Origin: Thermoanaerobaculia bacterium
GTDB taxonomy: Bacteria; Acidobacteriota; Thermoanaerobaculia; Multivoradales; JAHEKO01
Length of the DNA stretch: 64,000 nt
Reading direction: 5' to 3'
Assembly (NCBI GenBank): GCA_963781065.1
Contig: CAWAET010000017.1
Coordinates: forward strand, 90,805-154,804
Shown: positions 3,713 through 61,231 of the stretch, in pieces
How positions within the stretch are numbered: position 1 is the first letter of the stretch
Layout: each line of letters starts with the position of its first letter
Notes under the pieces: model-generated
Told to the model about the DNA's origin: nothing
The model's input: only the letters and a program-made list of their open reading frames with translations
The model's database searches: none
Program-made: the position numbers and the translations under genes

Positions 3713-4387
3713 ATGCTCGAAGCGCGATCCATCGTCCGCCGCGCCGGCGATCACTGGCTGCTGCGCGATCTCGACCTGGTGGTTTCCGGCGGCGACCGGA
3801 TCGCCCTGTCGGGTCCCTCGGGCGCCGGCAAGACCGTCCTGCTGCGCGCGTTGGCGCTGCTCGACCCGCTCGACGGCGGCGAGATCCGGCTCGGCGGCCG
3901 GCCCGTCGCGGCCGCCGAGGTGCCCGCCTTTCGCTGCCGGGTCGGCTACCTGCACCAGACCCCGGCGCTGGCCGCCGGCACCGTCGAGGCCAATCTGCGG
4001 CGGCCGTTCGCGCTCGCCGCCCACCAGGGGCAGAGCTACGACCGGGCGCGAGCCGCCGGCCTGCTGCGCCGGCTGGGCAAGGATGAGGGGTTCCTCGGCC
4101 GTCGCCGCGGCGAGCTCTCCGGCGGCGAAGCCCAGATCACCGCGCTGGTGCGGCTGCTGCAGCTCGCGCCCTCGATCCTGCTGCTCGACGAGCCCACCGC
4201 GGCGCTCGACCCCGACTCGGCCGAGCTCGCCCGCACGCTGCTCGACGAGTGGCAGGCCGGCGACGGCGGCAGCCGCGCTTACCTCTGGGTGACCCACGAC
4301 GCCGATCTCGGCCGGCGGGTCGCCGACCGCCACCTGCGGCTCGCGGAGGGCCGGCTCGAAGATCGCCGCCGCGAGGAACCGACATGA
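3713..4387 (+). CDS. ABC transporter ATP-binding protein (FetA/YbbL-like putative iron exporter)
   Basis: Walker A GPSGAGKT, signature LSGGE, Walker B LLLDEPTAALD. 224 aa with no fused transmembrane domain. The stop overlaps the downstream permease start. Confidence 0.8.
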   Translation: MLEARSIVRRAGDHWLLRDLDLVVSGGDRIALSGPSGAGKTVLLRALALLDPLDGGEIRLGGRPVAAAEVPAFRCRVGYLHQTPALAAGTVEANLRRPFALAAHQGQSYDRARAAGLLRRLGKDEGFLGRRRGELSGGEAQITALVRLLQLAPSILLLDEPTAALDPDSAELARTLLDEWQAGDGGSRAYLWVTHDADLGRRVADRHLRLAEGRLEDRRREEPT

Positions 4388-24169: not shown

Positions 24170-25970
<1,801 letters not shown>

Positions 25971-26031
25971 CCGGCGCGCTCAACGGATGCAGCCCGCCGG
26001 GGCGCTCGAGCAGGACCGGCTAGACGGGAGC

Positions 26032-33997: not shown

Positions 33998-34221
33998 GGC
34001 TCAGCTCCCGTAGTTTCAGAGGGTCTTCGAGGGGCGGCCGTCGAGGAGCACGGCCCGCAGGAAGGCATGGGGCGGGTCGTGAGGATATCGCGAATCCGAC
34101 CGAGCCAAAGGCCGGGCCACCGATCGTAGCGTTCTGGATTCCATGCAAGACCACGCTCAACTGGCAAAGGCCTGCCTTCGCGACGGAGGGCTCGCTGAAC
34201 CGGACGGCGCCCTCAGCCGTG

Positions 34222-34467
34222 TCAGTCCCCGGCGAGCTTGCGCTCGAGTTCCTCTAGCGAGACCGTCGCTTCCCCTCGCCGGTCCTCGATCAGCTTCCAG
34301 AGCTCGGAGCTAGTCTCCAGAACCACGGTTTCCCAATCCTGGCCTTCTACCCCGACGAGGACTGCGGCCGGCTGGCCGTGCCGCGTGACCACGACGCGGT
34401 CGTCCTGCGCGGAGTCCACCGCCTTCTTGACGCTCTTTTGAAGGTCTCGCACAGTGACTGTCTTCAT
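34222..34467 (-). CDS. Type II antitoxin, Phd/YefM family
   Basis: 81 aa, MKTVTVRDLQKSVKKAVDSAQDDRVVVTRHGQPAAVLV... Overlaps the toxin stop by 4 nt. Confidence 0.65.
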   Translation of the reverse strand: MKTVTVRDLQKSVKKAVDSAQDDRVVVTRHGQPAAVLVGVEGQDWETVVLETSSELWKLIEDRRGEATVSLEELERKLAGD

Positions 34468-34769
34468 CGGATCTCCTCCGTCGTGAGGTGCGGCGGCTTC
34501 CGCCTCACGGCCCGCACGAACACCCGCCGGTCCTCCTCGGCGACATCGTAGAAGACGCGATAGTCGCCGACACGCAGCTGCCAGATCGGCGGCACCGCCT
34601 CGAAGGGAGGTACCAGCTTGCGCAGCTGCTTGAGGTGTTTCGTGGGCCTGGTCGGCTCATGGGACAGCTTCCGCTCAATCTCGTCCAGGATCCTCTGGCG
34701 CTCGCGGGCGCGTAGCTTCTTCACGTCCTTGACGACGCTGACCGCGAAGCGAACTTCGTACACGCACAT
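34464..34769 (-). CDS. Type II toxin, RelE/ParE superfamily
   Basis: 101 aa with ...WQLRVGDYRVFYDVAEEDRRVFVRAVRRK. The toxin gene precedes the antitoxin (reverse order). A palindrome lies immediately upstream. Confidence 0.7.
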   Translation of the reverse strand: MCVYEVRFAVSVVKDVKKLRARERQRILDEIERKLSHEPTRPTKHLKQLRKLVPPFEAVPPIWQLRVGDYRVFYDVAEEDRRVFVRAVRRKPPHLTTEEIR

Positions 34770-45984: not shown

Positions 45985-48646
45985 CTAGCGGGTCCCGGCT
46001 CTGCGCTTGTGGATTCCCTTTACCCAGCGTTCTAGCTCAGCAACATCTGCGGTGAGCTCCTCCGGCTCGGGCACAGGTACATTCTCCGCTGCTGCTTGGT
46101 CGTGGCCGGGAAGCCACCGGGAGGCCTTGGACATTGCGGCCTCCAGCGTCCTGCAGTCCTTCTCGTTGATATCTGAGAGCAGGCCGACTCGGAGCGTTTG
46201 AATGGAAGGGCGGTAGCGTTGGACGACGCCAGCCAATAGGACTTCCTCGAGCGCACGCTCCCACGCCTCGCGGAGTAAGCCGTAGATGTAGATGGCTTCC
46301 TTCTCGTAGACGTCTCGAGAACTCTTCCGGAAGAGCTTCTCTACCGCCTGGCATTTCTGCTTGAGCACGCCAATTCGGTCCTTGACGCGCATGGCGACCC
46401 ACGGGAGTTCCGGTGACGCAACGCCAGCCCCAAGCGCGTCGCTCCTCACGTACTGGTACACGCACTCGCAACCAGCCTCCTCCGCTCCGCCAGCTAAGGC
46501 CAGCACGAAGACGATGTCGTGGGTGAACACTACGACTTGGCGGTGCTGCGCCTCCTGGGCTAGGCGACGTGCCACATTCTCGCGCCACACATGGTCAAGC
46601 GACGATACCGGATCGTCGAAGAGAATGGCCGACTCATCGGAGGCGGTAGCCAGCTCCGCGAAGAACGAGGCAATCGCAAGAGCACGAGCCTCCCCTTCAC
46701 TCACTACGCGATACAGCGTGGCACCGGGAGCACGCTTCAGGACCAGCCGATGGTAGAGGGCACCACGTTGACCCCCAGCAGCTTCGAGCACTACTTCGAG
46801 ATGGGTGAAGCCGATGCGTTCGAGCTCCGTCCGGAAGGCACCTGCCAGCTGGTCCGTGACAGCCCGCTTTGTAACATCCGTACTCTTGCGCGTAATGTCC
46901 CGCGTGTTCGTCTCGCGAAGACAGAGGCTGTACGCGGCTAGCTGCTTCTTTCGTTCGATCTCGGCAATGACCGCGTCCGCCCCCTTCCCGAGACTCTCCC
47001 TGGCGGAGAGCTCGCGAATCTCGCCATGGAGCTGTTCGGCGGCCGCCTGCGGTTTCTGGCCGGCCAGTTCGGAGCTACGGGCCTGCAGCGCAGCACTTTC
47101 TTCGTGGATTAGCGCTGCAAGCCCGGCCTGCAATGGCGGCAGACCAGCCGGCATCTCCGAGCCCTTGTCGAGAGTCACAACAACCTCTTGCTGGCGTTTC
47201 TCGCTGCGGCAATGAGCCCCGCGGCCTTGCTAGCCAGGGCGGTGTTCTCTAGGCGGAGTTCGGCCAGCTGGTTCTCTGTGGCTTCGTGGCGGTCGGACAA
47301 GTGCTTGAGCTCGAGGACTGAGCGCTGCCACGACACCCTCTCCTGGTCCACACTCTGTTGCAGCGTTGACCCTACGTAGTCCTCGAAGTTGCTCGAGCCG
47401 CCTCACGGCGGCGGGAGCCAGGGCCTGCTGGCAGAGCACACAGTGGGCCCCTTCGTGGATATGTGGAAACGGTTTGCCACGGTACGCACTCCCGGTCGAG
47501 AAGGCCCGTGCCGCCTCCCAGAGCTTTCGCCACAGGGGGCCACCAGACCCTGGAAGCAGGTCAGCCGGAAGAACCTGGTGGCGGTGTTCAGTCGCTGCCG
47601 ACTCTGCTTCTGAGAATGCCGTCCTCCGGTCGAACAGCGAATCCAGTCCCTCGTCACCCACGACGGAGACCACTGAGTCCACGTGCCTTGCGAGTGCCTC
47701 GACACGCTCTCCTCTCAGCCGCAGGGTCGCTGCACAGTCTCTTCGGGTCCTGTGCTCTTAGGTCGTCGAGCCGTTTGCGTAACTCCGCGAGCGCACGCTG
47801 TTCTTCCTCTGCGAGCGTGCCAAGGGAACGTACCCGTTCTGGCTGCGTGAGTGAACTCAGCGAGGCAAGTAGCTTCGCCGCCTCAGTACCCTCCGGAAGC
47901 TCAGGAAGGGCGTTCCGCTGAGCCTCAAGGACTCGCTGTTCCCGTTCGAGGATCCGCTTGACCGCCTGGCAAGCGTTGGAGAGTCCGTCAAAGAGGTCCA
48001 AGCCGAACGGCCGGAACGCTACGTCGGTCTTCTCCCGCAAGTACACGCTGGCGCAGTGGGTGTCGAAGACACTCACGTGGCCGAGCGCATTGTCAGGCTC
48101 ATCCTGGTCGGCCCACGCGAACTCCTTCTCTTCGTCTCCCGATCTGAACGAGATCGTCGCCGCCGGCCGGGCCGGCGCTTGGCTCTGGAATACATTGCCG
48201 AGAATGCTCTCAGCTCCTCGCGCGCGGCAGGCCCGCTTCAGTATGCGGGTATACCCGGACTTTCCGGCAGCGTTCGGTCCGTAGACAATCGTAAGGTCGG
48301 GGCCGAATTCGATCTGTTGCCCTGCCGCGAGTGCGTTTACGCCGGCGAGGTGGGTTAGCGAAGATAGGCTCGTTGGCGAAGATCCCGGTGTCCTTTGTGG
48401 GAGGTGACGCTTCTCTAGAGGATGGGCCACGGCGACTTCTGGGTCGGCGAGGCCATGCTCCGCTTTGCAGAGACCGGCCAACTCCTCGGCATCTTCTTGG
48501 CCGGGCTCTCCCTGGGTGACTAGACGCCGGAGGGCATCTCGTTGCCAGGCTGGAAGAGACGCTGACCAAGACAGGATCTCAGCGAGTACGTCCACGGTAG
48601 ACGGCCTCGTCTCTCCGGGTCGCGTTGGTTCCTTTGGCTTCCGCAT
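45985..48646 (-). pseudogene. Rad50/SbcC-like ABC ATPase with CxxC zinc hook (RloC/PrrC-like candidate anticodon nuclease or related defence ATPase); disrupted by a frameshift (about 47655-47682) and an in-frame TAG (47230-47232)
   Basis: N-terminal piece: Walker A IVYGPNAAGKSGYTRIL. Middle piece: coiled-coil with HCVLCQQ. C-terminal piece: signature-like VSEGEARALAIA, Walker B AILFDDPVSSLD, H-loop VVVFTHD, then a roughly 190-aa C-terminal domain containing WLPGHD. Confidence 0.55.
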
Positions 48647-52282: not shown

Positions 52283-52440
52283 GGGTGCCTCCCTTCTCGG
52301 CCCGCTGGCCAGCCTCGCGAGCCGCTCAACAGTGGCTGTCGCCAGCCTAGCCCTGACCTTAGCGCCAGATCGCCACCCGGACGGGTGGCTGTTCCGCGTG
52401 GACAGATGTCATGCGTTTCGGGCAGGGATGGCGCGGCAGC

Positions 52441-53845
52441 TCAGCGCTCGATTCCGAGCCCCATCCCGCGAGTGATGATCCGCGCCGGAGCCTTGGCCAG
52501 TGCCACCGTGACCCGAAGAGCGTTGAAGGCTGGGCCGGGTATGAGCCGCGCCACGGCCCGCCAACCGAGCCGCCGAACCACCGAGACCGCCTGGGCTCGA
52601 AGTCGCTTCTCCGGCGCGTAGCGTCGATCGAGCGCCTCCAGCCGTCTGAGCGCCCGTCCAAGAACCTGCCGCGCCCGACCTGCAGCCTCGAGCACCGGGT
52701 GCTTCGGATTCCGGCGGAAGGGCTCCAATCGCTGAAGCGCAGTGCGCTCCGCCTGCCGCGCCGAGGCGTAGCTGCGGATCGCCCCGGGAACCCTCTCGCG
52801 CAGAGCATCGCGAGCCTGACCGCGAGCCCGCGAGGCGACATGGCCGTGGAGCTTGCCGGCACTGGCAGGCCGCTCGCTGAGGGCTCTCAGCGTTGCCCCT
52901 GCCCCGTGACGTTCCAGGGTCGCCTCGATTCGCTGCCGGGCCGCAACGGGATCGCGATAGACCCGACCCAGCGCCGCATCCAGTTGGCGCGAGGCCTGGC
53001 TCACCCGCTCGGCTGCCCGCTCGTGGTCGGCGAGGGCCCTGCCCAGCCTCGCGAGCGAACCCTGATACCGCCCCCGCATCGCCTCCAGCCGCCCCCGGCT
53101 CATCAGCTGCCGCGAGATCTCCTGGATCTTCCGCAGATCCGGCGACGCCGGCTCGAACTTCCCCAGCCGCGCCTCGAGCCGCGGCCGGCTCATCTCCCGC
53201 TCGACCCTCGACGCCGCCACGTACCGCCGCCCATCGGTGATCACCAGCCCCCGCCCCGCCCGCGACGGCTGCAGCGTCAGCCCCTTCTGCGACAGCGACG
53301 CATGCAGCTCCTGCCAGCCCTTCGCCTCCCGAAAGCTCTCCCCCGCCAGCTCCCGCACGTTCTCGACGAACTGCCCTCTCCCCGGCCGCGTCCCCAGGTA
53401 CCGATCCTGCCCCGGCACCGGCGAATGCCGCCCCGGCACGATCCTGCAGCCCCAGCTCCCGCTCCTGCTCCCGCAGCGAGGTCTCGATCCGGTGGTAGTC
53501 GTGCGAGCCCACCCAGGCCCGCCCGGTGTCCGGGTGGACCCGGTTCACCATCAGGTGGATGTGCTGCTGGGCGCCGTCGGCGTGCTCGGCGATCAGCGCC
53601 TGGTGCTCGGCGAGGCCCAGGTCCTGGAGCAGCCGGTCGGCGACCCGCTCGAGCTCGGCCCGTTCCAGCCGCTCGCCGGGGGCCAGGCTGACCGAGAGGT
53701 GATAGACGGGCTTCTCGGTGCGGCTCGAGGCGTTGGCCGTCGCGCGCATCACGGCCGCGGCCTTCTCCGGGTCGGGGTCCGGGAGGTTCCGGGTGGCGGT
53801 CCAGATCGAGCGATCCGGCACCAAAAGGTGCCGTAGGCTTCGCAA
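52441..53845 (-). pseudogene. MOB-family conjugative relaxase (MobA/VirD2-like) with frameshift near 53440; copy 1 of 3
   Basis: N-terminal relaxase domain with VYHLSVSLAPGE and the 3-His motif HADGAQQHIHLMVNRV. The C-terminal half continues in another frame (…WQELHASLSQKGLTLQPSRAGRGLVITDGRRYVAASRV...). Confidence 0.65.
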
Positions 53846-53934
53846 GCGGGGCGGCGAGCGTCACCGACTGCTAGCCTCGCGGGTCTCGACCGTCCATTTG
53901 GGGCCGGCGGCAGACCCTGACACGACCTGGGCTC

Positions 53935-54468
53935 GTGGTGCCAAACCGACACCGTCTACGGAACGCTACCTTCCACGTCGCCGGCATCCTGATGCTGGTC
54001 GCCATGATCGGACTGCTGGTCAGTGTCTGGCAGGTGATGTTCAACTTCTGCCCGCCGACCACCGAGTGGCCGGCCGGGATCAGTAACGGCATGGCCCGAA
54101 CCTCCGACCGCCACGCGGTGGTGATCCTGCGGGGCGCCGACCGTGTCCAGGTCTACGACGAAGAATGGCGGTTCGTCCGCGGCTGGAACGTCGGCGCGCG
54201 CGGCAAGCTTTTGGGCCTGCACGTCGGCGCAGGCGACATCATCAGCCTGTTCACGTCGCGGGCCCGGATTCGATACACGATGTACGGCGAGATCGTCGCA
54301 AGCACGCCGGTGGCCGACGAGGAGCGGCCTGAACGGCCGCTCCTGGCCTGGGTACCGGGCTCTCCATGGTATTGGTTCCTGCTCAACCCGGTGGTCTGCA
54401 TGGTGATCGCCTTGCTGGGACTGTGCGCTCGGCTCTTGACCACGCCCCGCCTAGCACCGCGCGACTGA
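53935..54468 (+). CDS. Hypothetical 2-TM membrane protein
   Basis: 177 aa. Hydrophobic segments VAGILMLVAMIGLLVSVW and WFLLNPVVCMVIALLGLCA. No recognisable motif. Confidence 0.35.
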   Translation: MVPNRHRLRNATFHVAGILMLVAMIGLLVSVWQVMFNFCPPTTEWPAGISNGMARTSDRHAVVILRGADRVQVYDEEWRFVRGWNVGARGKLLGLHVGAGDIISLFTSRARIRYTMYGEIVASTPVADEERPERPLLAWVPGSPWYWFLLNPVVCMVIALLGLCARLLTTPRLAPRD

Positions 54469-54499
54469 CGCGCTGGGGTGCTCGCTCCCCTGGACACAG

Positions 54500-54870
54500 G
54501 TGCCATGCCCTTCGGGGAAGGACGGTGCGCGACCTCGGCGACATGGCCGTGGAGCTTTCCAGCACTGGCAGGCCGCTCGCCGAGGGCTCTCAGCGTTGCG
54601 CCAGCTCCGTGACGTTCCAGCGTCGCCTCGATTCGCTGTCGGGCCGCAACGGGATCGCGATAGACGCGACCCCGCGCTGCATCCAGTTGACGCGAGGTCT
54701 CGCTCACGCGCTGGGCTGCCCGTTCGTGGTTGGCGATTTCCCTGCCCAGCTTCGCCCCGAAGTGAGGTCCACCCTTCTCGGAATAGAGCCGTAGTGCTTC
54801 AGCCGGCGGGACCGAGACGCCCTCGCGAGCCTGGAGTGTCGGGCCGGAGCGATAGGCTTGCACGGTGACG
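54500..54870 (-). pseudogene. Relaxase gene fragment (copy 2; C-terminal-region segment only)
   Basis: Encodes ...ERAAQRVSETSRQLDAARGRVYRDPVAARQRIEATLERHGAGATLRALGERPASAGKLHGHVA. About 85-90% nucleotide identity to 52840-53080 of copy 1. Confidence 0.5.
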
Positions 54871-55542
54871 ACGCTTGCCATCGACATCTGGTCCGACATC
54901 GCATGCCCGTGGTGCTGGGTGGGCAAGCGGCGCCTGGAAGAAGCCATCGATGGATTCCGGGGAAACGTCGCTCTCACCTGGCGAGCGTTCGAGCTCGACC
55001 CGGCCGCCCCGACGGAGGCGCCGGAACGAGTCGACTATGCCCAGCGGCTGGCCGCCAAGTACCGCACGACCCCTGACGAGGCCCAGGCGATGATCGACCG
55101 GATGGTTGACGTCGGCCGCTCGGTCGGGCTCGAGCTGCGGTTCGACCGGGTGCGCCCGACCAACACTTTCGCCGCTCATCGCCTGCTGGCGTGGGCCGTC
55201 GGGTTCGGGCGTCAAACCGACCTCGAGGAACGGCTCTTCGCGGCCTATCTGAACGAGGGCCTGGCCATCTCGGAGCACGACGTTTTGTGCGGACTCGCCG
55301 AGAGCGTCGGCCTCGACCCCGAGGCCGCCGCCGTGGTGCTCGAGAGCGACGCCCACGCCGATGAAGTGCGCCAGGACCAGGCCCTGGCCGCGCGGCTCGG
55401 CGTCCGTGGGGTGCCCTTTTTCGTGCTCGACCAGCGCTACGCCGTCTCCGGGGCGCAGCCGGCCGAAGAGCTGTTGGCGGCGATGCGCCAAGCTACCGAC
55501 GATCTGTCACCGGCATCGGCGGCTAAACCATGCCCCTCCTGA
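54865..55542 (+). CDS. DsbA-family thiol-disulfide oxidoreductase (FrnE/2-hydroxychromene-2-carboxylate-isomerase-like)
   Basis: GTG start. CPWC active site (IWSDIACPWCWVGK). Thioredoxin fold with inserted helical domain. Confidence 0.75.
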   Translation: MTTLAIDIWSDIACPWCWVGKRRLEEAIDGFRGNVALTWRAFELDPAAPTEAPERVDYAQRLAAKYRTTPDEAQAMIDRMVDVGRSVGLELRFDRVRPTNTFAAHRLLAWAVGFGRQTDLEERLFAAYLNEGLAISEHDVLCGLAESVGLDPEAAAVVLESDAHADEVRQDQALAARLGVRGVPFFVLDQRYAVSGAQPAEELLAAMRQATDDLSPASAAKPCPS

Positions 55543-55711
55543 TCCTGCTGCTGCTGAGCACCGTCGAGCCGGCCCCAACCGGGCCCTACCTGGTCTTCGG
55601 CCTGTCGCCCGAGATGACCGGCCGCCCCGGGACCTGAGGCGAAGCTACTCAGCCTCGCGTCAAAGTCCCTTTGGGGGGGCGGAGGAGGCGGGACGGAGGT
55701 CGGAGCAGCTC

Positions 55712-56365
55712 TCAGCCGGGGTAGTTCTTGCTCAACTCCGCGCTGAGGAGCGCCGCAAGCGGCTCGAGCCCGAACGGCTCCAACGGCTTTCCATTGACGA
55801 AGAAGCCCGGAGTCAGGCGAACACCAAGAGTCTCGGCGTCGGCGAGATCCTGCTCGATGATGGCCGTGATGCGCGGGTCGTTCATATCCGCCCTGAGCCG
55901 CTCGAGGTCGAGCCCGACGGTGGGCAGGAGCTGCCAGACCTGGTCGAGCCTCACCTGATGGTGCTGAGTCCAGAGGCTCTGCGAACGATAGAGCTGGTCG
56001 AGGGTTTGCCAGTACTTCCCCTGCATCCGCGCCGCTTCCAGAACCCGGACCACATCGCTTGACCCCCCGTGGAACGGGGCGTAACGGATCACGAGCCGGA
56101 TCTTGCCCGGATGGCGGTCCATGATCTGCTTCACGAAGGGCGAGAAGGCGGCACAGGTCTCACACGCCGGATCCGTGAACTCGACGAGGTAGACCCTGGC
56201 ATCGTCGGCACCAAGAGCGGGCGAGTGAGGCCGAACGAAAGTCGAGGCTCGCTCCTGAGCCAGGAAACCCAGCTTCTCGGCGCGCCGCTTCTTGAGCTGC
56301 GACGCGCCGAACCAAAAACCGACAATCAGAATCAGGCACGTAACGATGAACAGGTTGCGCTTCAC
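55712..56365 (-). CDS. Membrane-anchored DsbA/BdbD-like thiol-disulfide oxidoreductase
   Basis: GTG start (Val106 of the ORF) after GGAGGAG. N-terminal transmembrane helix, CETC active site (EFTDPACETCAAF). Overlaps the dsbB stop. Confidence 0.75.
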   Translation of the reverse strand: MKRNLFIVTCLILIVGFWFGASQLKKRRAEKLGFLAQERASTFVRPHSPALGADDARVYLVEFTDPACETCAAFSPFVKQIMDRHPGKIRLVIRYAPFHGGSSDVVRVLEAARMQGKYWQTLDQLYRSQSLWTQHHQVRLDQVWQLLPTVGLDLERLRADMNDPRITAIIEQDLADAETLGVRLTPGFFVNGKPLEPFGLEPLAALLSAELSKNYPG

Positions 56366-56817
56366 TTGGGACTCCTCCGGTGGACGGCGAGCAGAATTCC
56401 GGTCAATGCGGTGAACCCGAGCCAAGAGAGCATCGGAATCGACAAGAATCCGAAGAGCTCCAAATACTCCTCGGTACACGACACGCCCTGGGTGCAGGGC
56501 TGCAGGCGTTCCGGGACGATCCCGGCGTATACGAGATTGTGATAGCTGGCCACGAGCCAACCCAGGGTCGCCAGAGGCAGGGCGTACCTGACCACGGCGC
56601 GATCGAGTGGGAACAGCCCTCTGGCGAGCACGATGACCAGGGGAAACAGGAAGATCCTCTGATACCAGCAGAGGACGCACGGAGCAAAGCCCATGACGTA
56701 GCTGAAGAAGAGGCTACCCGCGGTCGCGACCGCAGTGATCAGCCAAGCCGAAAAAAGCAGAACCCAGTCCAGTTCTGGCCTCTCGGCGGGGGAAGCCCCG
56801 CTACCGGCGCGATTCAT
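56362..56817 (-). CDS. dsbB: Disulfide bond formation protein B (DsbB/BdbC family)
   Basis: 4 transmembrane helices, CVLCWYQR and C...C second pair (CTQGVSCTEE). Confidence 0.8.
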   Translation of the reverse strand: MNRAGSGASPAERPELDWVLLFSAWLITAVATAGSLFFSYVMGFAPCVLCWYQRIFLFPLVIVLARGLFPLDRAVVRYALPLATLGWLVASYHNLVYAGIVPERLQPCTQGVSCTEEYLELFGFLSIPMLSWLGFTALTGILLAVHRRSPK

Positions 56818-56879
56818 CTCGTTCCGTGCTCCTGCTTGGGTCGTGGATCCGTTCGGTTTTCCATCCCATTGGCGGGAGA

Positions 56880-57600
56880 CTACCGGAAGGTGCTGAACAG
56901 GTAGACATCGAAGGAGGCCTCGAGTACTGAGTGCTTCGGATTCCGGCGAAAGGGCTCCAATCGCCGCAGAGCAGTACGCTCCGCCTGACGCGCCGAGGCG
57001 TAGCTGCGGATCGCGCTGGGAACTCTCTCGCGCAGAGCATCGCGCGCCTGACCGCGAGTTCGCGAGGCGACATGGCCGTGGAGCTTGCCGGCGCTGGCAG
57101 GCCGCTCGCCAAGCGCTCTCACCGTTGCCCCTGCTCCATGCCGTTCGATCGTCGCCTCGATCCGCTGCCGTGCCGCCACGGGATCGCGATAGACCCGACC
57201 CAGCGCCGCGTCCAGCTGACGCGAAGCCTGACTCACCCGCTCAGCTGCCCTTTCGTGATTGGCCGGAGGGGACGGCGTGGAGTTCAGCGCTCGATTCCGC
57301 GCCCCATCCCGCGGGAGATGATCCGTGCTGGAATAGTCGTGCGAGCCCACCCAGGCCCTTCCGGTGTCGGGGTGGACCCGGTTCACCATCAAGTGGATGT
57401 GCTGCTGGGCGCCGTCGGCGTGCTCGGCGATCAGCGCCTGGTGCTCGGCGAGACCGAGCTCCGTGCTGAGGCCTTGGCCAGCGCCACCGTGACCCGAACA
57501 GCGTTGAAAGCCGGGCCGGGAGTCAGCCGCGCCACGACCCGCCAACCGAGCCGCCGAACCACTGAGACCGCCTGGGCTCGAAGTTGTTTCTCAGGCGCGT
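56880..57600 (-). pseudogene. Relaxase gene remnant (copy 3; internally deleted fusion of the 3-His motif region to the C-terminal segment)
   Basis: Encodes GLAEHQALIAEHADGAQQHIHLMVNRVHPDTGRAWVGSHDY fused to ...ERAAERVSQASRQLDAALGRVYRDPVAARQRIEATIERHGAGATVRAL...PFRRNPKHSVLEA. Nucleotide segments duplicate 52460-52640, 52840-53100 and 53470-53640. Confidence 0.5.
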
Positions 57601-57791
57601 AGCGCCGATCGACACCGGGCGGATCGGGCATCCGGCGGATGCCTACCCTGACCGATGCCCGACCACTACCGGGCATCATGCCTCGAGCGCCAGGGCGGTT
57701 TGCTACGCTCTATGCAGCTTTGGCCCAAAGTCGATTCCGGTGCGCGCATCGCGCAGCTGCGGCCGCGCCACATCAAGACAGGGGGGTAGAA

Positions 57792-58307
57792 ATGCTGCTG
57801 AAACCACGCGAGGTTCTTTCCACGATGATCGTGATGGGGGCATGCGTCACGGCTCACGGAGCCCATGCGGCATCCGCTGGAACAGCGACGACCTGGGCAC
57901 CCGACCAGATCACTTTCGTCACGAGCATCGAGGGCGATTCCCTGTTGACCGTCACCGGACCGGATTTCGCCCTCCGCCTCCGAGGCCGGGGATTGCTGGC
58001 CTTCCAGCCGGTCGACGCGGAGGGACTGCCGCTGCCTGACGGGGCGTATCGCTACGAGCTGCGCGAGATCGTCGACCGTCCGGCGATGCGGGCACTGCGG
58101 CACGAATCGGACCGACAGCGGCGGCAGGAGCTGCTGCGGCAGATGAGACGCCGCGGTGAGTGGCCGCCGCGGCGCCCGAGGATCGAGCATTCCATCTTCG
58201 AGATCCGCGACGGGGCGCTCGTCGCACCGGTGCCGGCAAGAAACGACGCGGTCTCGAGCGAATCCGAATCCGCGGCGGCTCCGGCGCTCACCGAGGAGGG
58301 AAGATGA
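57792..58307 (+). CDS. Secreted hypothetical protein
   Basis: Start at MLLKPREVLSTMIVMGACVTAHGAHA (signal peptide). The stop overlaps the next gene start (ATGATG). Confidence 0.45.
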   Translation: MLLKPREVLSTMIVMGACVTAHGAHAASAGTATTWAPDQITFVTSIEGDSLLTVTGPDFALRLRGRGLLAFQPVDAEGLPLPDGAYRYELREIVDRPAMRALRHESDRQRRQELLRQMRRRGEWPPRRPRIEHSIFEIRDGALVAPVPARNDAVSSESESAAAPALTEEGR

Positions 58308-59209
58308 TGCGACCGGCCACGGCTTTCCTGTTTCTTCTGCTTGCCGTCAGCGCGGGCCTCAGGGCGGAGATCTTCAACGAAGACGTCACGATTCAGACCA
58401 CCGACCCCGACCTCTTCCTGGTCGACTCCGACGGCACGACCTGGTTGGTCGAAGCGGACCCGACGAGCGCGCCCAACGGCTTCGCGATCGCTCGCAACCC
58501 GGGCGACCACGAGGTCTTTGTCCTGGAGGACGACGCACCGGCATCAACCATCTATGTCGACTCCAGCGGCAGGATCGGCCTGGGCACCAGCGCCCCTGTG
58601 GCGGATCTCGACATCTTCGACCCGAACGGCAGCTCCATCGCCTCGCTGGGCCTCACGACCTCCACGAGCAGCTGGGTCGTCTCTACCACCAATGACGAAT
58701 TCCGGGTGACCAGCGGGGCGAACCCCAACGACCCCGCTCCCTTTCGCATCTACCCAGGAGCCCCGGCGAATTCGATCCGCATCCAGAGCACCGGAGTGAG
58801 TATCAACGGGGCCGTCGTCACGCTTTCCAGCCGGGAGAGCAAAGAGGCGTTCGAGAAGGTCGACACGCGGGAGATTCTGGATCGCGTGCTGCAGCTGCCG
58901 CTCAGCCGTTGGACCTACAAGACCGACCCCTCCGGCGCGCGTCATCTCGGACCGATGGCGGAAGACTTCCATACGGCGTTCGGCCTGGGTCCCGACGAAA
59001 CAGGAATCGCGACCATCGACGCGAGCGGCGTCGCCCTGGCCGCGATCCAGGGCCTCAAGATCGAGCACGACGCCCGCATCGCCGAGCTGATCCGAGAGCA
59101 CCAGGCCGAGACCGCCTCGCTACGGGTCGAACTGGCAGAGCTCCGGCGCCTGGTGGCCGGGCTGCTGGAGGACAGCCTCGAGGGGGCGGTCGCGGAGGCC
59201 GGGCCCTGA
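58304..59209 (+). CDS. Secreted tail-fiber-domain protein with C-terminal intramolecular-chaperone (peptidase S74-like) domain
   Basis: Signal peptide MMRPATAFLFLLLAVSAGLRA. The C-terminal ...LSRWTYKTDPSGARHLGPMAEDFHTAFGLG...IDASGVALAAIQGLK... matches the endosialidase-chaperone-type autoprocessing domain. Confidence 0.65.
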   Translation: MMRPATAFLFLLLAVSAGLRAEIFNEDVTIQTTDPDLFLVDSDGTTWLVEADPTSAPNGFAIARNPGDHEVFVLEDDAPASTIYVDSSGRIGLGTSAPVADLDIFDPNGSSIASLGLTTSTSSWVVSTTNDEFRVTSGANPNDPAPFRIYPGAPANSIRIQSTGVSINGAVVTLSSRESKEAFEKVDTREILDRVLQLPLSRWTYKTDPSGARHLGPMAEDFHTAFGLGPDETGIATIDASGVALAAIQGLKIEHDARIAELIREHQAETASLRVELAELRRLVAGLLEDSLEGAVAEAGP

Positions 59210-59739
59210 ACCGAGGCAGACGGGGCTCAGTCGACCCCAACAGGAGGTACCACCGTGACCCGGGGAGATACGTCCGACCCGACGGTATTTCCCATGAAGA
59301 CGATTCGGACGTCGTGGAGTACCAGGCCAAGTGGCGCTCCGACAGCGTGTCGTGGCCTGACGTCGAGGATCGAATCGCGTCTGGAGATTCAGCCATAAGC
59401 GATCGCTCGTGCCGAAGAACCGGGCTCCTCGGCTGGTAGAGAACACGTGGCGAGGCCCGAGGCCAGTGACCTGATCGCCCGCGGAGCGTCTCGAAACTAG
59501 TATCCCAGCGACCGAGAGGCTGCCCTGTCGATGAAAAGCGGCCGTCTGGTTTTCGATGCGAAGGCGACCTCCGCAGCCTGAGGAGCACCACGGGGCCCGA
59601 AGCGCCTCAAGTAGTAATCAAAGAACCCGAAGCGGGTGGAACCTCGGGAGGGCGCAAGCAGACCCCTCCTCGACCGGGGCCGTAGTTGCTGCCCGAGCCG
59701 CGAGGGGTCGTCCTCTCTACTGCGCCGACGTTGCCGACG

Positions 59740-60042: not shown

Positions 60043-60295
60043 TGGGAACTCTCCCTTTTTCGCGATGGCGACATCCCTGTCGCCAAGTTGACAGAGGCGC
60101 TGCCGGCCTTAACCCGCATTCTTGGAGCCGGCTGCACGCGACGAATCTGGGGAATACTAACTCAGTGCGGGCTCGACCGCGCTCGTGGCGAGGGCCGAGG
60201 GCCGGTCGCCTGATCGCCCGCCAATAGAGGTTCCACCCATTTCGGAACTCAAGAGGCGAAGATTGCCTCGGCAGAATCCGTCCAATCCCATTGAG

Positions 60296-61231
60296 ATGTC
60301 CCGCCCCCTGCGCTACGTGCCATCGGACAGCCTTGTGGAGGTCACCTGCCGCACCCTGCATGGCCGGTTCCTTCTCCGCCCTTCCCGCGACCTCAACGAG
60401 ATCGTCCTCGGCATCCTGGGCCGCGCCGCCGGGCGTTATCGCGTCAAGCTCTGCCACTTCACCTATCTCTCGAACCACTGCCATCTGCTTCTGCGACCCG
60501 CCGACGCGCGCCAGCTCGCCCGCTTCATGGGCTTCGTCAACGGCAACCTGGCCAAAGAGGCCGGCCGGCTCCACGGCTGGCGCGAACGGATCTGGGGCCG
60601 GCGCTACACGGCTATCGTGGTCAGCCACGAAGAGGCTGCCCAGGTTGCCCGGCTGCGCTACCTCCTCGAGCAAGGCACGAAGGAGGGTCTGGTTCGCAGC
60701 CCCCTCGACTGGCCTGGAGCCCAAGCGTCCCAAGCCCTCCTCGACGGCCGGCCCATGCGCGGCATCTGGTTCGATCGCACGCGGGAGTACGAGGCCCGCC
60801 GCTCGGGCCAGCGGCCCGGCAAGTACGAGTTCGCCGACGAGGAGTCGCTCGAACTCTCTCCCATCCCTGCCTGGAAGGCGCTGGCCCCCAAGGCAAGGCG
60901 CGAGGCAGTGCGGAATCTCGTGCGAGAGATCGAGCGCCAAGCCCGTAGGGCCTTGAGGGCCTCGAACAGAGCCCCGCTGGGCGTCCGGCGAATCCTCGCC
61001 CAGGATCCGCACGACCGGCCAAAAAGCACGCAGCGCTCGCCCGCCCCACGCTTCCATGCTCATGCGTGGCGCGTCCGCAAGGGCCTCGAGATCGCCTACC
61101 ACGAGTTCCGGCTCATGTTCCGTCAGGCAGCCGAAGACCTGAGACGCGGCCGGCCGGGAGTGGAGTTTCCCGCGGGTTGCTTCCCGCCTCCCTTGCCCTT
61201 CGCCCGCGGCCGACCCGCAACGCCGGTGTAG
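60296..61231 (+). mobile_element. HUH (Y1) transposase of the IS200/IS605-like / REP-associated tyrosine transposase (RAYT) type
   Basis: HuH motif YLSNHCHLLLRP, conserved ...GRFLL..., C-terminal RYTAIVV...LRYLLEQG (candidate catalytic Tyr region). No flanking IS inverted repeats were recognised. The start (Met38 of the ORF) is uncertain. Confidence 0.6.

Follow-up and report, generated by a model that had tools for sequence, protein, structure and literature searches.

Conjugative relaxases of the TraI/MobA(P) family, such as TraI of plasmid RP4 and VirD2 of the Ti plasmid, belong to the MOB_P group, whose motif I bears the catalytic tyrosine and whose origins of transfer (oriT) combine an inverted repeat with a nick site (motif definitions and oriT layout from PMC3772185). 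Decayed remnants of ICEs (integrative and conjugative elements) and IMEs (integrative and mobilisable elements), as well as the tandem accretion of integrated elements, have been described for streptococcal IMEs and cis-mobilisable elements (CIMEs; reviewed in PMC5704250). Here, we describe a locus in a 64,000-nt stretch of DNA from a Thermoanaerobaculia bacterium of the Acidobacteriota (assembly GCA_963781065.1, contig CAWAET010000017.1, positions 90,805 to 154,804; hereafter the window), which bears three incomplete copies of a MOB_P-like relaxase gene, all oriented alike on the minus strand and inside 5.2 kb. The locus is ordinary, non-functional mobile-element debris from an undescribed MOB_P-like clade. 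It probably represents a scrapyard of dead relaxase fragments from at least three related alleles, which stem from one family of small NikA/MobC-plus-relaxase elements in this lineage.

The nearest described process is the integrase-driven tandem accretion of ICEs, IMEs, and CIMEs. The locus resembles it in the side-by-side arrangement of related mobilisation modules, mostly decayed and apparently from different incoming sources, with cargo-like genes in between. The classical case, however, is an integrase-driven and site-specific process marked by repeated attachment (att) sites, whereas the locus is without a detectable integrase, att site, or tRNA target. What is repeated here is the relaxase gene, an indication of homologous or illegitimate recombination rather than of site-specific accretion, and the breakage is much finer, with blocks down to 64–350 nt. 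A further point of comparison is the BID domain (PF17841) of relaxases and Bartonella effectors: the C-terminal segment found in all copies is the region in which some distant members of the family have precomputed PF17841 matches. The locus differs in that the open reading frame (ORF) of copy 2 matches PF17841 only weakly, with 17 bits under a gathering cut-off of 29.5 bits, and that the window bears no type IV secretion system (T4SS).

Intact relatives of the relaxase

The ORFs of copy 1 match the Pfam families Relaxase (PF03432; 102.6 bits at a cut-off of 24.6 bits) and TraI_middle (PF22863), in line with the relaxase identity proposed in a preliminary description of this stretch; copy 3 passes the PF03432 cut-off as well with 43.3 bits. 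For the search of relatives, the translation of copy 1 was conceptually repaired, and intact proteins of 481–486 aa were found with it. Among these, P0122 (locus L007) shares 92.7% nucleotide identity with copy 1 with one gap, and P0001 (locus L006) is 90% identical to it at the nucleotide level. Named matches and genome records assign the family to Acidobacteriota/Thermoanaerobaculia-type metagenome-assembled genomes (MAGs) and to neighbouring phyla, and a scan of species-representative genomes yielded two loci only, both distant.

P0122 matches the NCBIfam family NF041893—"TraI/MobA(P) family conjugative relaxase"—with an E-value of 1e-51 and 176 bits. This score lies under the equivalog cut-off of 250 bits, which marks a distant relative rather than an equivalog. 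The best annotated plasmid relatives of P0122 are all TraI/MobA(P) genes, at identities of only 27–32%, and a sequence search of the PDB with the relaxase gave no match to any solved structure. Judged by these scores, the family would form a distant and uncharacterised MOB_P-like clade. Its intact members are nevertheless alike to the TraI/MobA(P) relaxases in their matches to PF03432 and, under its cut-off, to NF041893, in the tyrosine of motif I near the N-terminus, and in the HxDxxxxHxH motif (motif III; hereafter the 3-His motif): among 25 aligned full-length relatives (A1), Tyr18 (within LQQYLLHG) is present in 25/25, and H106, D108, H113, and H115 are invariant.

The likeness extends to the gene neighbourhood. 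A NikA-like/MobC gene adjoins the relaxase gene immediately upstream at the intact loci L006, L007, L008, and L009, and an inverted repeat and a conserved block follow further upstream. At L001, a RepA_C gene lies upstream of the NikA-like gene, which makes this locus a small mobilisable module. The hairpin upstream of nikA (L007 1228–1345; also in L008, L009, L001, L010, L013, and L014) has arms that co-vary between elements—GGCAAACGTA/TACGTTTGCC, CCGAATGT/ACATTCGG, and CCGGACGT/ACGTCCGG—and is followed ~45 nt on by the almost invariant block CGGTCTCGCACCCTGGCGGGTGCTCGGAGCGGG, which includes GCACCCTGGCGGGTGC. Hairpin and block are likely the oriT of the intact elements, as far as this arrangement can tell. 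The canonical MOB_P nick motif was also considered here and discarded: its core ATCCTG is absent even from this oriT-like region, where the variant ACCCTG stands instead. The window copies, on the other hand, are pseudogenes without the tyrosine. Because both the tyrosine and an oriT are missing, they would not be expected to nick a cognate oriT and attach to it covalently.

Architecture of the three copies

Self-comparison of the region from 52 to 58.5 kb and of the full window recovers a single set of dispersed direct repeats, the sole such repeats in all 64 kb. The stretches 52425–53052 and 53496–53624 of copy 1 are found again at 54537–54755 (90% identity) and at 56917–57612 (86–95%). The preliminary description had suggested this comparison and had spoken of near-identical recurring blocks; the repeats are indeed present at almost the positions it gave, at an identity of 85–95%, however, which is not near-identical. 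With BLAST E-values from 1e-14 to 1e-128, they lie far past chance. Four blocks can be distinguished, all on the minus strand: block A (copy 1 52425–52489) recurs in copy 3 at 57269–57332, block B (52479–52631) at 57460–57612, block C (52685–53036) at 56917–57270 and again in copy 2 at 54537–54755, and block D (53496–53624) at 57334–57462. The breakpoints are all sharp, with junction overlaps of 2–11 nt.

These junctions bear on the question whether the arrangement arose in the computer, i.e., whether a metagenome assembler built one chimeric stretch of contig from the reads of several related plasmids or elements that existed side by side. The source is a MAG contig, related alleles at 85–95% identity co-occur in such communities, and at least one probable indel error lies in the window: the gene of a GTP-dependent phosphoenolpyruvate carboxykinase (PEPCK; 24170–26023) is frameshifted. 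Its frame switches near 25290–25310, and the phase of the GC content at third codon positions (GC3) flips at ~25.3 kb; the frame that starts at 24170 encodes PEPCK_N and PEPCK_GTP up to profile position 137, and an ORF at 25272–25970 encodes positions 134–354 of PEPCK_GTP. This is probably an assembly indel, which makes single-base indels and frameshifts of this assembly suspect in general. The repeats are a different matter: a divergence of 5–15% excludes the collapse or expansion of identical repeats, and overlaps of at most 11 nt are far below any assembler k-mer or read overlap, so that an assembly collapse is unlikely. Furthermore, unique and well-coding genes—the Dsb genes and a 177-aa ORF—separate the copies, and a comparable layout of a main gene plus a foreign fragment is seen at L008, which comes from an independent assembly of the Joint Genome Institute (JGI). 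We regard a chimeric contig as quite unlikely.

Copy 1 (52441–53822) corresponds to gene nt 78–1458 of intact 485-aa relatives. It contains the rest of the relaxase nuclease domain—the PF03432 match begins at profile position 15—together with TraI_middle and the C-terminal region that is BID-like. The alignment with the intact genes runs from gene nt 78 (window position 53822) to the stop codon at 52441, likeness to L006 and L008 even continues beyond this stop to 52409, and an in-frame stop lies immediately upstream of the point where homology starts. Copy 1 hence is without the first ~26 codons, the catalytic Tyr18 among them. The full relaxase domain that had been ascribed to copy 1 is therefore only partly there: its metal-binding 3-His motif (HADGAQQHIH), whose columns are invariant in A1, stands at 53584–53555, while the tyrosine region is gone. 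Since motif I supplies the catalytic tyrosine, copy 1 would be unable to nick DNA even if it were repaired. A frameshift had been noted as well and is present as a single extra G at 53447 (+1), located between the nuclease domain and TraI_middle. This G may be a true mutation or an indel of the assembly; in view of the PEPCK gene, it carries no weight, and the 5′ truncation by itself renders copy 1 non-functional.

The other two copies are without the Tyr18 region altogether. Copy 2 (54537–54755) comprises only 219 nt from the BID-like segment at the C-terminus (gene nt 849–1065, aa ~283–355) and is 90% identical to copy 1; its native frame is open, and its flanks are unrelated on both sides. 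Copy 3 (56917–57612) was described as a direct fusion of the 3-His region to the C-terminal segment. It is in fact rearranged, and more scrambled than this, with the order B-D-A-C in gene sense. Block B (57460–57612; gene nt ~1268–1420) is the C-terminal end. Block D (57334–57462; gene nt 276–404) comprises 129 nt with 94.6% identity to copy 1 and bears the 3-His motif (HADGAQQHIH) at 57422–57393. Block A (57269–57332; gene nt 1418–1463 and beyond) holds the last ~40 nt of the gene, the stop codon, and ~20 nt downstream of it, and block C (56917–57270; gene nt 868–1214) is the BID-like region, which is 88% identical to copy 1.

In a normal gene, B and A adjoin; in copy 3, they are separated by block D, which is bounded by an imperfect duplication of ~11 bp—TCAGCACGGA at 57469–57460 on the left, within B, and TCCAGCACGGA at 57332–57322 on the right, within A. 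The same stretch is single-copy in copy 1, at 52489–52479. A block flanked by such a duplication is the mark left by an insertion of the templated or illegitimate kind. Blocks D and C share a frame inside one 221-aa ORF, whereas B and A read out of frame. This chimeric ORF has no conserved homologue: among 5.8 billion proteins, none covers more than ~57% of it.

Four independent, isolated fragments with the 3-His motif end 40–77 nt downstream of it, at gene nt ~378–414. These ends are located at window position 57334 (the end of block D), L003/L015 ~1979, L004 ~1132, and L016 ~164, just after the small palindrome CCGGGTCCACCCGG. A rough post hoc estimate puts the chance of this at ~0.02, for loci that were detected via the 3-His motif itself, and the clustering is only weakly suggestive. 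A site-specific breakpoint was rejected, as the breakpoints are scattered across ~36 nt and are followed by sequences without any likeness to one another.

The remaining parts of a mobile element were sought across the window. Tblastn with the NikA-like protein, RepA_C, and the neighbour proteins of L001 and L005–L009 gave no match in the window except for a Y1-like ORF at 60.3 kb; tblastx of the reference loci against the window returned noise only and was discarded. Neither the hairpin nor the conserved block of the oriT-like region has a match in the window, be it by BLAST or with three mismatches allowed, and the motif YATCCTGY does not occur between 50 and 60 kb; the search for an oriT, which the preliminary description had recommended, hence came back empty. 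Domain scans of the credible ORFs of the window revealed no integrase, recombinase, coupling protein, or T4SS, and the only transposase-like gene in the window is the Y1/RAYT-like ORF at 60185–61231. Neither tRNA genes nor Rfam families are found in the window, and as the relaxase blocks are its only repeats, att-type repeats are missing too. The initial view that no intact conjugation machinery is visible holds. The view of a decaying mobilisable element with three gene copies holds in part: the copies are dead, decayed remnants with signs of recombination, yet a recognisable integrated plasmid or IME is not there, the window being devoid of integrase, att, tRNA, oriT, NikA/MobC, and Rep.

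Origin of the copies

Gene nt 868–1065 are present in three versions, which calls for at least three source genes. In distance matrices, copy 1 is about 92–93% identical to L007 and L009, two alleles from outside the window, 91% to copy 2, and 86–88% to copy 3. The 3′ half of block C of copy 3 matches L007 at 97.1% identity, but copy 1 at 91.4%. Thus, the copies are not each other's closest relatives, which contradicts a duplication in place that was followed by decay. The codon comparison points in the same direction. Relative to copy 1, synonymous and nonsynonymous differences amount to 27 and 8 in block C, 6 and 1 in block D, and 8 and 4 in block B of copy 3, and to 12 and 9 in copy 2, and the native frame is open in every block, with no stops. 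Neutral decay leads to roughly three nonsynonymous changes per synonymous one. Divergence that is mostly synonymous, together with open frames, suggests that the differences built up in functional genes of different elements.

It is on these grounds that the internal duplications of one element, as initially proposed, are not borne out. According to that explanation, the relaxase gene of a single integrated mobilisable element was duplicated internally, and the copies then decayed and were rearranged in place. The direct orientation of all copies within 5.2 kb would fit, copy 2 has its nearest relative in copy 1 (90.8–90.9%), and the blocks of copy 3 cover separate parts of the gene and could derive from a single one. 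However, intact genes of other samples are nearer to copy 1 than copies 2 and 3 are, part of copy 3 matches a foreign allele at 97% identity, and a mainly synonymous divergence of 5–15% is unlike the decay of pseudogene duplicates. In addition, no further part of an element is duplicated or even present. We consider duplication in place unlikely.

Independent assemblies hold broken forms of the gene much like those of the window. At L008 (744–2130), the relaxase gene carries a 71-nt internal deletion, and an extra 3′-end fragment (4211–4331) lies about 2 kb downstream, which is 93.6% identical to copy 1 of the window and 85.1% to the gene of L008 itself. At L009 (1168–2624), a frameshift divides the relaxase into ORFs of 305 and 149 aa, and L003, L004, and L016 hold lone relaxase fragments of 160–340 nt amid unrelated surroundings.

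Taken as remnants of at least three alleles, the copies fit DNA that was contributed step by step by a pool of related elements, or that recombined with them. Different incoming elements, or pieces of them, were probably captured one after another at this site, most plausibly by recombination with a resident relaxase remnant—either of the Campbell type, i.e., by a single crossover, or by homology-facilitated illegitimate recombination—which would leave direct repeats behind; direct orientation and mosaic identity are what these two processes are expected to produce. Afterwards, the result was probably trimmed by deletions and altered by a single insertion, templated or illegitimate, namely of block D with its ~11-bp duplication. 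The Dsb genes and the 177-aa ORF would be either resident genes or cargo of such captures. Today, the fragments are inert.

A different understanding of the open frames would be that the tyrosine-less fragments have been retained for a function. The 221-aa ORF of copy 3 and the ORF of copy 2 might be expressed as small decoy proteins against incoming related plasmids and compete for the oriT or the coupling protein. Fragments with the 3-His DNA-binding core, the BID-like secretion-signal region, or both would then poison the relaxosome and form a relaxase-derived plasmid-exclusion or decoy system. All blocks are open in their native frame with changes biased to synonymous ones, D and C are in-frame within one ORF, and the BID-like region is preserved in all three copies. 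Such a decoy, if real, would also account for the recurrence of 3-His and BID-like fragments in L003, L004, L008, and L016. Against it, the architecture of copy 3 is unique rather than conserved, with blocks B and A lying out of frame; the ORF of copy 2 extends in antisense into the 177-aa gene, which is itself well supported, and has an overlap with the start of dsbA as well; and, at about 10% divergence, open frames across 130–350 nt are unremarkable. We deem both the expression of decoys and the resulting exclusion system most improbable.

Several points nevertheless weigh against the reading of the locus as a scrapyard of captured fragments. The shared blocks are short (130–350 nt), so that the allele relationships rest on few sites, and gene conversion could have given rise to the mosaic pattern. 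Divergence dominated by synonymous changes and open frames would also be expected under continuing selection on the fragments. No att sites, empty site, or syntenic relative was found, and the mechanism of capture is an inference only. The order B-D-A-C of copy 3 requires several separate events under any model, and the structure of the locus rests on a single MAG contig.

Neighbouring genes and significance of the locus

Three Dsb-type genes and a membrane ORF lie between the copies, as had been reported from the outset. The latter (53935–54468, plus strand) separates copies 1 and 2 and encodes 177 aa with hydrophobic ends; it shows good coding GC3 and matches neither Pfam nor NCBIfam. It is followed by a gene for a DsbA/FrnE-like thioredoxin-fold protein of 225 aa (54865–55542, plus strand; PF01323, E 4.7e-44), by one for a Thioredoxin_4/DsbA-like protein (55712–56404, minus strand), whose longest ORF reaches to 56680 and whose coding signal favours the shorter form, and by one for a DsbB/BdbC-type disulfide oxidoreductase membrane protein of 151 aa (56362–56817, minus strand; PF02600; NF002849, E 2.9e-33). 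Identical records in other assemblies were found neither for P0003 nor for the DsbA ORF or the 177-aa ORF. A search for the empty site via a flanking 486-aa gene was abandoned, as this gene is an orphan whose sole match is itself.

Downstream of copy 3, a plus-strand gene at 58160–59209 encodes a 349-aa protein with a C-terminal Peptidase_S74 domain (endosialidase/tail-fibre intramolecular chaperone), a domain typically seen in surface proteins or in proteins that resemble phage tail fibres; an ORF at 57639–58307 precedes this gene and overlaps it in another frame. Further on, the 348-aa ORF at 60185–61231 (plus strand) shows weak matches to Y1_Tnp/IS200-like and REP-associated tyrosine transposase (RAYT) families. 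Its 5′ part is homologous (61.5% at the amino acid level) to a 140-aa ORF at L008 3707–4187, which adjoins the extra relaxase fragment of that locus, and also resembles a short stretch at L007 6854–7002. The Y1-like gene seems to travel with these relaxase elements.

The first ~33 kb of the window hold ordinary chromosomal genes, e.g., for sigma factors, a NuoF-like protein, an NiFe hydrogenase, PEPCK, CorA, and MscS. Two fragments of 79 and 44 nt, at 34110–34188 and 59424–59467, are 94–95% identical to parts of a 235-aa gene that lies beside a RelE/ParE-like toxin gene at L003 (411–1487), and the fragment at 34.1 kb adjoins a pair of a Phd/YefM-like antitoxin and a RelE-like toxin (34222–34769, minus strand). 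These fragments are more debris of the mobile-element type, unrelated to the relaxase. The many small window matches of L003 were also considered as patchwork DNA, and this was dismissed; they are rather paralogues or fragments of a separate gene near toxin–antitoxin pairs. At 45985–48646 (minus strand), an AAA_13/AAA_21/SMC_N-type ATPase with OLD/Abi-like defence-type domains appears to be broken up into three consecutive ORFs (45985–47178, 47230–47682, and 47654–48646), which may be a degraded gene or reflect further assembly indels.

The importance of the locus is limited. For annotation, it carries a warning: matches to "relaxase" are here no sign of a mobilisable element, and single-base frameshifts of this assembly are not to be trusted. 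To our knowledge, the mobile elements of the Acidobacteriota are poorly known, and the locus and its relatives document in this phylum a distant, uncharacterised MOB_P-like relaxase clade with a NikA-like partner and, probably, an oriT whose nick region is of the ACCCTG type. Moreover, relaxase remnants of different alleles pile up here side by side, which hints that resident debris might act as a landing pad on which more plasmid DNA can settle.

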